DNA of 64,000 nt, from assembly GCF_024298885.1 (NCBI RefSeq), contig NZ_CP101166.1, positions 2,291,149-2,355,148 of the forward strand, read 5' to 3'. The DNA comes from Haloglomus halophilum. Lineage in GTDB: Archaea > Halobacteriota > Halobacteria > Halobacteriales > Haloarculaceae. The translations under genes and the position numbers were made by a program. The notes under the pieces were generated by a model. It did not search any database, was not told where the DNA came from, and saw nothing but the letters and a program-made list of their open reading frames with translations. Shown piece by piece: positions 8,969 through 46,698 of the stretch. How positions within the stretch are numbered: position 1 is the first letter of the stretch; each line of letters starts with the position of its first letter.

Positions 8969-9193
8969 ATGAATTCAGTACGAATTCATATGAGCCGCAC
9001 CTCCATCCCGGTCGATGCTGCGACCAAGGAGCGACTCGACCGGCTGAAGCGGGACGTCGAGACGTGGGACGAGTTCCTGCGGCGAGTCACTGCCACAGCC
9101 GCCGGTGAGTCGATGGAGGCCGGCGTCTGGTCCGACGAGACGGCCGAGCGTGCTCGGGAGGCTATCCGGGAGTCTCGAGAGAACTGGAGATGA
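8969..9193 (+). CDS. small hypothetical protein, ribbon-helix-helix / antitoxin-like N-terminus
   Basis: SIPVDAATKERLDRLKRDVETWDEFLRRV resembles CopG/VapB-type RHH openings; the start may be the internal MSRTSIPV; no partner toxin gene adjacent. Confidence 0.4.
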   Translation: MNSVRIHMSRTSIPVDAATKERLDRLKRDVETWDEFLRRVTATAAGESMEAGVWSDETAERAREAIRESRENWR

Positions 9194-9213: not shown

Positions 9214-10218
9214 TTACAATCCGTGCTCCGCGCGCACCTCGTCCAGCCGCTCGCGCGCCCGGTCGTTGACCGGCTCCTCGTTCTCGACGGGGTCGCGGCC
9301 GTGCATCGTCTCGTGGACCATCGCGATGGAGTCCGCGAGCGCGTCGAGGCTGTAGCCGCCCTCCAGCACGAACGCGAGCGCGGCGTCGAGGTCGTCACAG
9401 AGGTCGTCGAGCCGGCGGGTCATCGCGCCGTACCCCTCCGTTGAGACACGCATCCGGGAGATGGGGTCGTGCTCGTGGGCGTCGAAGCCCGCGCTGACGA
9501 TGAGGAGGTCCGGGTCGTACCGTTCGAGCGCGGGCCGGAGCGCCTCGTCGATTGCGGCGAGGTACTCGGCGTCGCCACAGCCGCCCCGATAGGGCACGTT
9601 CAGGATGGAGCCCTCGCCCTCGCCGCGGCCGGGTTCGTCGACGTGGCCGGTGCCGGGGAAGAGGCCGCGCTCGTGGATGGAGGCGTAGAAGACATCGCCG
9701 CGCTCGTAGAACATCTTCTGCGTGCCGTTGCCGTGGTGGACATCCCAGTCGAAGACGGCGACGCGGTCCACGTCGTCGCGCTGGAGGGCGTCGGTGGCCG
9801 CGACGCCGGCGTTGCCGAGGAAGCAGAAGCCCATCGCCTCGTCCGGTTCGGCGTGGTGGCCGGGCGGCCGGCCGATTGCGAAGGGCGTATCGTGGCCCTG
9901 CTGGCCGTCGAGGGCCGCGTTGGCCGCCCAGACGGAGAGCCCGGCGCTGGCGCGGGCGGCCTCCCAGGTGGCACCCACTGCCACGGTGTCGGCGTCCCAG
10001 GTGCCACCGCCGTCGGCGCAGAACTGCTCGACCTCGTCGAGGTAGTCCGGGTCGTGGACGCGTTCGAGCGCCTCGCGGGTGGCCAGCGAGCCCTCCTCGT
10101 ACTCGACGCCGTGGAGGCGCGAGAGTCGCCGGCGGATGGCCCGGAGCCGGTCCGACGACTCCGGGTGCCGGGCGCCGGTCTCGTGTCGTAGACAGGCGTC
10201 GCGGTAGCCGAATCGCAT
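9214..10218 (-). CDS. hdaI: class II histone deacetylase / acetoin utilisation AcuC family protein
   Basis: HDAC catalytic motifs FCFLGNAG...DWDVHHGNGTQ...SAGFDAH...EGGY; start ATG located at 10218 (MRFGYRD). Confidence 0.85.
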   Translation of the reverse strand: MRFGYRDACLRHETGARHPESSDRLRAIRRRLSRLHGVEYEEGSLATREALERVHDPDYLDEVEQFCADGGGTWDADTVAVGATWEAARASAGLSVWAANAALDGQQGHDTPFAIGRPPGHHAEPDEAMGFCFLGNAGVAATDALQRDDVDRVAVFDWDVHHGNGTQKMFYERGDVFYASIHERGLFPGTGHVDEPGRGEGEGSILNVPYRGGCGDAEYLAAIDEALRPALERYDPDLLIVSAGFDAHEHDPISRMRVSTEGYGAMTRRLDDLCDDLDAALAFVLEGGYSLDALADSIAMVHETMHGRDPVENEEPVNDRARERLDEVRAEHGL

Positions 10219-10673
10219 CAGAAGTACTCTGCGAGTCGGAAGTAGACCGCCACATCCTCCTCCTTGATGGTGCGGCGGTCGGCGTGTTCGGCGAGGACGG
10301 CCGCGGCGGCCGCCACGCGGTCGGCGTACCGTTCGAGGACGGTCGCGAGCGCGACCCGGGCGTCCATCGCGACCCGATAGGAGTCGTCGATGTCGAGCCG
10401 GGCGATGCGGTCGACCGGCGCGATGGGCAGTTCCAGCCCTTCCGGGTCGCCGTTCGCGGGTACGCCCCCCTCGGCGAGGTCGGCGAAGTCCTCGGCCATC
10501 AGGGTCTTGCGACCGTCCTCGGTGGCGCGTTCGGCGGCCTCGACCGCCAGTGCGGCCCCACGGGACTGGATACGGCGCGCGAGCTCCTCGGCCGCCTCTG
10601 CGCTCACGCGGAGGTCGCCCGCGTTCCGCCGGATGACGGTATCGACGGGGGCGAACGGTAGCTCGACACTCAT
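10218..10673 (-). CDS. hpyA: archaeal histone, tandem (doublet) histone-fold protein
   Basis: MSVELPFAPVDTVIRRNAGDLRVSAEAAEELARRIQ, then a second fold LELPIAPVDRIARLDIDDSYRVAMDARVALATVLERYAD; its stop TGA overlaps the hdaI ATG (TGATG). Confidence 0.8.
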   Translation of the reverse strand: MSVELPFAPVDTVIRRNAGDLRVSAEAAEELARRIQSRGAALAVEAAERATEDGRKTLMAEDFADLAEGGVPANGDPEGLELPIAPVDRIARLDIDDSYRVAMDARVALATVLERYADRVAAAAAVLAEHADRRTIKEEDVAVYFRLAEYF

Positions 10674-10810
10674 ACCGCGTATCCGGTCCGTTCGACACTT
10701 CAACCCGTCGGTCGTGGGGTGTTCACAGGCCGCCCCCGTGACGACGGCGCTCCTCCCGGTTCCGGCCGGATGCCGGGACTGTTATCGGCACCCCCTGCGT
10801 CGGTGCCACC

Positions 10811-11197
10811 GTGCTTCCCGTACTCCAGTCCGAACTCCCGTTCGCGCTGGTCGCCGGCGGTGGCGTCCTCGTGCTCGTTCTGCTGTTGCTCGGCCGCGCC
10901 ATGCTGGGTGGCGGCGACGGCAAGTACGACGACCCCGAGGCCCAGGCCGCCCACGAGGCGGCCCAGCGCCGCGACGAGAGCGAGGCCGCACCCGTCGGCT
11001 CCGAGCAGACGGCGGTCGTCACCGAGACGAACGACACCGGCCACGGCCGCGAGGCCGTCGTCAAGGTGAACGGGCTGGTCGTGTTCGTCGACCAGAACGT
11101 CCCCGACACGGTCGAGACCGGCGACACCATCCGACTCAAGGTCACCTCCCACAGTGAGAACGCGGCGCACGCGATGTTCGTCACGAAGGTGGAGTGA
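10811..11197 (+). CDS. membrane-anchored TRAM-domain protein
   Basis: N-terminal hydrophobic helix (LPFALVAGGGVLVLVLLLL) and a C-terminal TRAM-like beta-barrel (GREAVVKVNGLVVFVDQNVPDTVETGDTIRLKVTSHSENAAHAMFV). Confidence 0.55.
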   Translation: MLPVLQSELPFALVAGGGVLVLVLLLLGRAMLGGGDGKYDDPEAQAAHEAAQRRDESEAAPVGSEQTAVVTETNDTGHGREAVVKVNGLVVFVDQNVPDTVETGDTIRLKVTSHSENAAHAMFVTKVE

Positions 11198-46492: not shown

Positions 46493-46698
46493 TCCACCAC
46501 TTGCGGCTCCACCTCTCTCACGCCCACGTTCCGAAGCCCTTAGAAGCCCGAACCAAGAAGATAGCTCCAACTCGTCGGTCGCGGGCACCGACGGGCACCT
46601 GCTACGGCAGGATGGAATGTGGCCAGCGGGGGCGAAGCCCCCGGAGAGGCGGCGCAGCCGCCGATGGGCTGAACCACGCAACGCCCGCGGTGACACAC

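Follow-up and report, generated by a model that had tools for sequence, protein, structure and literature searches.

We report that a 64,000-nucleotide (nt) stretch of Haloglomus halophilum DNA, the whole of which we refer to as the window, carries on its minus strand a histone doublet gene that runs directly into a deacetylase gene. We consider this pair to be, with a probability of about 0.85, the Haloglomus-lineage copy of the hstA/hpyA–hdaI operon, in which a leaderless bicistronic mRNA would be translated by termination-reinitiation. The histone gene occupies positions 10673..10218, with its ATG at 10673-10671 and its TGA at 10220-10218, and its translation is 151 amino acids (aa) long, while the deacetylase gene occupies positions 10218..9214, with its ATG at 10218-10216 and its TAA at 9216-9214, and translates into 334 aa. 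Stop and start codons are fused in a TGATG at 10220..10216 of the minus strand, read as catca at 10216-10220 of the plus strand, and exactly one base, 10218, is common to the two genes, serving both as the A of the histone TGA and in the ATG of the deacetylase. The GC content at codon position 3 is 0.88 in the histone frame and 0.93 in the deacetylase frame. Moreover, on two metagenome contigs that encode an identical histone, the gene calls of the Joint Genome Institute (JGI) gave the same two-gene layout, again with one base in common. Open reading frames (ORFs) on the plus strand across the region, such as 9552..10661 and 9469..10191, were rejected, being Arg/Gly-rich antisense or off-frame readings typical of high-GC DNA and absent from the independent gene calls. 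Scans with Rfam and for tRNAs gave no match in or near the histone–deacetylase locus.

The product of the first gene is an acidic histone doublet, orthologous to the products of hstA and hpyA. Two profile families, Pfam CBFD_NFYB_HMF (E 5.6e-26) and NCBIfam archaea_histone, each matched the 151-aa protein in two stretches, and the halves were recognised separately as well, either half by itself matching HMk (1f1e), HPhA, HMfA and HMfB: residues 1-68 were recognised in a search of their own, and residues 81-143 aligned to HMfA with an E value of 3.7e-11. Fold 1 spans residues 1-68 (10673..10470, minus strand) and holds a GRKT loop-2 motif, with the codon of K56 at 10508..10506, whereas fold 2 spans residues 80-147 (10436..10233, minus strand) and holds an RRT motif that aligned to the loop-2 motif of HMfA, with the codon of K137 at 10265..10263. 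In HMfA, HMfB, HPhA and HMk the Lys of GRKT is the residue to which K56 aligned, a position reported from HMfB mutagenesis to be a DNA contact; for the putative DNA binding of the window protein, the conserved motifs are GRKT in the first fold and RRT in the second. The AlphaFold2 model (predicted local distance difference test 80, predicted template modelling score 0.76) displayed two helix-strand-helix-strand-helix units, and its best Foldseek match among solved structures was Methanopyrus HMk 1f1e, with a template modelling score of 0.75 and a root-mean-square deviation of 2.7 Å over 142 columns at 27% identity. HMk of Methanopyrus kandleri likewise holds two histone folds in one chain, as a pseudo-dimer. 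Its pI of 4.58, 17 Arg and 2 Lys are in keeping with the acidic doublet histone cluster, a group found mainly in Halobacteria whose median values are 143 aa and pI 4.7 (PMC13260811). The nearest named histone is that of Haloglomus salinum, at 97% identity, and members of the Haloglomus clade carry about 6 additional residues in the linker that joins the folds.

The product of the second gene belongs to the Zn-dependent deacetylases of the HdaI type and has an intact catalytic set. It matched Pfam Hist_deacetyl (PF00850) with an E value of 9.8e-87 over profile positions 1-297 of 298, and no NCBIfam family matched it. Its best solved relatives were the CD1 and CD2 catalytic domains of HDAC6 (class IIb) and bacterial HDAH, and the best 60 PDB matches comprised HDAC6, HDAH, HDA1, Clr3, HDAC4/7, HDAC10, HDAC15 and APAH, with no class I or HDLP chain among these 60, so that the protein appears nearer to class II than to class I and class IIb-like. 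It contains the motifs GHHA, DWDVHHGNG, SAGFDAH and EGGY, aligned to the corresponding motifs of HDAC6, and residues H121, H122, D159, H161, D246 and Y289 are present in the window and invariant in all 80 orthologs of the comparative set described below. From established structural knowledge of HDACs, we take these residues to be the His-His dyad, the Asp-His-Asp zinc ligands and the catalytic, transition-state Tyr, respectively. The dyad, the zinc ligands and the Tyr are thus shared with the HDAC6 domains and with the bacterial HDAH proteins (PA3774, FB188), but the window protein differs from these in comprising one 334-aa domain and nothing else, and in being highly acidic, with a pI of 4.68 and one Lys.

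The start of the deacetylase gene could be fixed with confidence. In each of the 80 orthologs the alignment starts at residue 1 and the protein opens with M-[R/N/K/Q/H]-F, and in 22 genomes the TAG that stops the histone stands in frame directly ahead of the ATG, which makes an earlier start impossible there. The next in-frame Met of the window protein lies near residue 128, within the catalytic domain, and solved homologs align to the protein from residue 5-16 onward. An earlier or a later start was therefore rejected on the strength of the ortholog N-termini and the in-frame stops. These results agree with most of what the original prediction had read from the DNA, namely a tandem histone-fold protein, whose two folds were recovered by profile, half-by-half and structural searches, a class II deacetylase, and a one-base TGATG overlap, which we read directly and which the ortholog N-termini and in-frame TAG codons leave in place. 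Its further label of 'AcuC-family' did not hold up beyond loose annotation usage, as the best 60 PDB matches included neither class I nor HDLP chains and 'acetoin utilization protein' was only the depositor's name for the Pseudomonas HDAH 5li3.

We then compared the locus across Halobacteria. Scanning one genome per species with the histone alignment yielded 399 relatives, from which the best 80 were kept, representing more than 20 genera of Halobacteria. In 80/80 genomes the next gene after the histone gene, on the same strand, is a deacetylase ortholog, and the distance from stop to start is between -4 and +9 nt in 76 of them. Counted over 82 loci, including the two metagenome contigs that encode the window's own histone, the junction is an ATGA (-4 nt) at 28 loci, a TAGATG (0 nt) at 22, a TGATG or TAATG (-1 nt) at 11, nine of them in genomes and among them Haloglomus and Haloferax profundi, a short gap of +1 to +9 nt at 17 and a long spacer of +31 to +144 nt at 4. 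The TGATG of the window recurs at three further Haloglomus loci (L003-L005) and the TAATG form is that of Haloferax profundi (L063). The form of the junction has therefore turned over repeatedly while the proximity of the two genes persisted. Even at each of the four long-spacer loci (L010, L021, L033 and L037) a mini-ORF ends between -4 and +4 nt from the deacetylase ATG. By itself a 1-nt overlap is common: among 2,511 co-directional gene pairs of H. volcanii, the -4 nt junction (354 pairs) and the -1 nt junction (nearly 100 pairs) are the commonest, and about 30% of the pairs fall between -8 and +6 nt (PMC10666635). The non-random part is the pairing together with a tight junction kept across the class.

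The spacers of these four loci were of two kinds. In two Halobacteriales metagenome-assembled genomes (L033:3435-3473 and L037:2651-2692) a gap of 31 and 34 nt, respectively, separates the histone stop from the deacetylase ATG and is spanned by a mini-ORF of 12 or 13 codons, MTDHRRTVTASR and MTDHRRTADPTSR, with an ATGA overlap at both ends and a frame that is kept despite a 3-nt indel; it could be a termination-reinitiation relay or could have arisen by chance in GC-rich DNA. In Halorussus aquaticus and H. ruber (L010:3433-3569 and L021:3433-3576) the histone–deacetylase spacer measures 137 or 144 nt and contains a B recognition element (BRE)/TATA-like sequence, GCGAAGCGGTTAAATT, scoring 8.6 bits on the histone-promoter matrix, as well as a conserved 19-codon ORF, MKHVLPTTEFLPRSGATDP and MIDVPSTTESPPRSDPTDA, whose end is 2-4 nt short of the deacetylase ATG. 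The ATGA overlap is retained in three other Halorussus species.

Nearly all loci carry upstream of the histone gene a BRE/TATA-like motif, cGGAAAg-N-TTAAGg or TTATAC, located 23-24 nt before the histone ATG, and a conserved element at that distance implies a leaderless mRNA. In the window the putative element is ccgacgggTTGAAG at 10698..10715 of the minus strand, with TTGAAG at 10703..10698, a distance of 24 nt from the histone ATG that would leave the mRNA with little or no leader, an assignment made by position only. A degenerate form of the motif is common to the Haloglomus clade, the window included, which suggests that the histone gene is more weakly transcribed or differently controlled there. 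Scored upstream of the deacetylase, the same motif gave a median of -3.0 bits and a maximum of 6.7 bits, well under the histone promoters, and 22 of the 80 scores exceeded the 95th percentile of the coding-interior control. An internal deacetylase promoter inside the histone gene was rejected, there being nothing comparable to the histone promoter motif in the tight-junction loci; given a crude position weight matrix, on which even the histone promoter of the window scores poorly, this rejection is an argument and not a proof. A Shine-Dalgarno sequence was equally lacking, as no match longer than 3 nt was present in the 20 nt upstream of the window's deacetylase ATG, and across the family Shine-Dalgarno-like matches before the deacetylase were rarer than in coding-interior controls.

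Because the AUG overlaps the stop codon and the deacetylase has neither a Shine-Dalgarno sequence nor a promoter-like element of its own, we propose that it is translated by reinitiation. From the BRE/TATA element, which lies about 24 nt upstream of the histone ATG, a leaderless bicistronic mRNA would be transcribed with its start at or near that ATG; ribosomes would translate the histone on it and terminate at its UGA, and the terminated ribosomes would then reinitiate at the overlapping AUG to produce the deacetylase. Under such a mechanism the output of deacetylase would depend on histone translation and be capped by it, the ratio of deacetylase to histone being 1 or less.

This proposal agrees with what has been described in relatives. 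In H. volcanii the histone and hdaI genes overlap and are cotranscribed (PMC2946573), and the window pair is orthologous to them, which bears out the link to a cotranscribed hdaI that the original prediction had made. At both loci a class II deacetylase of the HdaI type comes after an acidic doublet on the same strand, with stop and start codons that overlap. They differ in the overlap itself, TGATG in the window as opposed to the TAATG represented by Haloferax profundi (L063), to whose proteins the window histone is about 69% identical and the window deacetylase about 60%. In the locus tags of H. volcanii, HVO_0520 denotes the histone, HVO_0522 denotes HdaI and HVO_0521 a CCA-adding enzyme, so the order of the tags does not mirror the reported overlap of histone and hdaI. 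Halobacterium salinarum has an rpa-hpyA-aup operon (PMC4600100), in which the histone doublet gene hpyA likewise shares one operon with aup, and the window pair is orthologous to hpyA–aup as well. However, rpa lies upstream there, whereas the window has a divergent neighbour at 10811..11197 on the plus strand and a promoter-like element directly before the histone gene. The name aup is read here as 'acetoin utilization protein', under which the deacetylase homolog is annotated. As for the junction, the -1 nt TGATG of the window is one of the two canonical configurations of the termination-reinitiation pairs studied by Huber et al. (2019, 2023). Termination-reinitiation occurs in H. volcanii at overlaps of both -1 and -4 nt, and its efficiency is down by 40-60% at a distance of 13-14 nt and about zero at 22-23 nt (PMC10666635), and coupling there does not need a Shine-Dalgarno motif (PMC6728339).

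Several points weigh against the operon and reinitiation reading and keep our estimate from being higher. The promoter motif is only weakly matched in the window, at 2.5 bits, where the median of the family is 19.7 bits. For this organism we infer the transcription start from position and the cotranscription and coupling by homology and analogy, the coupling being of the latter sort because hstA–hdaI lies outside the set of pairs tested for it; nor are the two products known as a heteromeric complex. Ribosome-profiling values for HVO_0520 and HVO_0522 were not found in the supplements searched. Deletion of hstA is viable in H. volcanii although hdaI is essential (PMC2946573, PMC10128011), which indicates that hdaI can be expressed without translation of the full-length histone, at least in an engineered strain. 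Finally, the 80 genomes, chosen as the top matches out of 399, form neither a random nor a complete sample, and they are phylogenetically non-independent.

The original prediction had gone a step further and concluded that the single-nucleotide overlap implies stoichiometric co-translation of a chromatin protein and its presumed deacetylase. In this explanation the overlap would enforce 1:1 co-translation of the histone and a dedicated deacetylase, either as an enzyme–substrate pair or as a co-translationally assembled heteromeric complex, and we regard it as unlikely. Subunits of heteromeric complexes are overrepresented among the products of overlapping gene pairs (PMC10666635), and the histone–deacetylase pairing and its tight junction are conserved class-wide. 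Coupling as such is a reasonable expectation from the behaviour of -1 and -4 nt overlaps in H. volcanii, and this part of the claim stands; equal amounts of product, however, would demand a coupling efficiency of 100%, and measured efficiencies vary strongly between gene pairs (PMC6728339), so the stoichiometric part does not follow from the overlap. The description as a chromatin protein fares no better, as HpyA and HstA are scarce and non-essential DNA binders with transcription-factor-like expression, and their binding covers less than 1% of the genome (PMC10128011).

The remaining part of that claim, that the deacetylase serves the histone, was examined through the lysines of the latter. 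K56, in the GRKT loop-2 motif common to DNA-binding archaeal histones, is invariant in 81/81 histone doublets, and a review holds the histone to be a reasonable substrate of HdaI, which is essential in H. volcanii (PMC2946573). Nevertheless, with HdaI essential and HstA non-essential, the histone cannot be the essential substrate of HdaI. Moreover, the window histone has only two lysines; across the orthologs the number ranges from 1 to 6, and K56 is the sole lysine in 29 of the 81. Position 137 is K in 39 of the doublets, Q in 38 and T in 4. Should the histone serve as a substrate, K56 would be its only universal site. HVO_0520 is also missing from the H. volcanii acetylome supplements searched, which list HVO_0522, a weak piece of negative evidence given that the files may be incomplete and the protein is scarce. 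The histone may be one substrate of the deacetylase, and the wording 'its presumed deacetylase' claims too much.

In the opposite direction, the overlap could have arisen simply because the genome is compact and the operon high in GC, with the deacetylase translated independently, by de novo internal initiation or from a leaderless transcript of its own, and the link to the histone would then mean nothing for translation. Overlaps of -1 and -4 nt are indeed very common in haloarchaea (PMC10666635), one tested overlapping pair of E. coli was uncoupled (PMC6728339), the viable hstA deletion beside an essential hdaI fits independent expression, and the two Halorussus species carry a promoter-like element in their spacer of about 140 nt. 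Yet the deacetylase has no Shine-Dalgarno sequence or comparable promoter match upstream in the tight-junction loci, the proximity of the genes survives many changes of junction type, the long-spacer loci still have an ORF ending at the deacetylase start, and all tested pairs of H. volcanii were coupled (PMC6728339, PMC10666635). We therefore judge translation independent of the histone to be quite improbable. Finally, that the deacetylase start was mis-assigned and no real overlap exists is hardly credible: the deacetylase frame is open upstream as far as a GTG at 10698, making a 494-aa ORF, but this extension is Arg/Gly/Pro-rich and off-frame over the histone gene, and the shared M-x-F N-termini, the in-frame TAG codons and the position of the next Met all speak for the ATG at 10218.

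Taking up again the preferred reading of an operon translated by termination-reinitiation, we also considered an extension of it to the whole class, which is speculative and on present evidence doubtful. Here the essential HdaI would possess no signal for starting its own translation and would in every case depend on ribosomes that have just finished an ORF upstream of it, be it the histone or, where a spacer has been inserted, a mini-ORF. The invariant K56 in the GRKT DNA-contact loop, together with the alternation at the second position between K and Q, a mimic of acetyl-lysine, would fit a one-site acetyl switch on the DNA binding of the histone that the co-expressed deacetylase resets.

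The surroundings of the pair in the window were inspected as well. On the plus strand at 8969-9193 lies a DUF7557/VapB-antitoxin-like gene of 74 aa (79 aa in the JGI contig call), which converges on the deacetylase gene, their stop codons being 20 nt apart. No PIN or VapC partner adjoins it, its neighbours being FtsY upstream and the deacetylase opposite. On the other side, upstream of the histone gene, the divergent ORF at 10811-11197 on the plus strand encodes 128 aa with a hydrophobic N-terminal segment, has no Pfam match and is called on both JGI contigs. The only Rfam match above its gathering score in the window is an eL15-Euryarchaeota ribosomal protein leader at 46598-46680 on the plus strand (38.7 bits), and the tRNA scan of all 64 kb came back empty.

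In summary, the operon arrangement and its likely translational consequence are already established in model relatives, and the window adds an ortholog to them. The by-products of the comparison are modestly useful, namely that the pairing and the juxtaposition of stop and start are found in every sampled genome and that the histones have at most one universally conserved lysine. The comparative results argue against carrying the reading of a 'stoichiometric chromatin module' forward, and the notion that the deacetylase acts on the histone is narrowed to two specific, testable points, the translational coupling of the two genes and the acetylation of K56.

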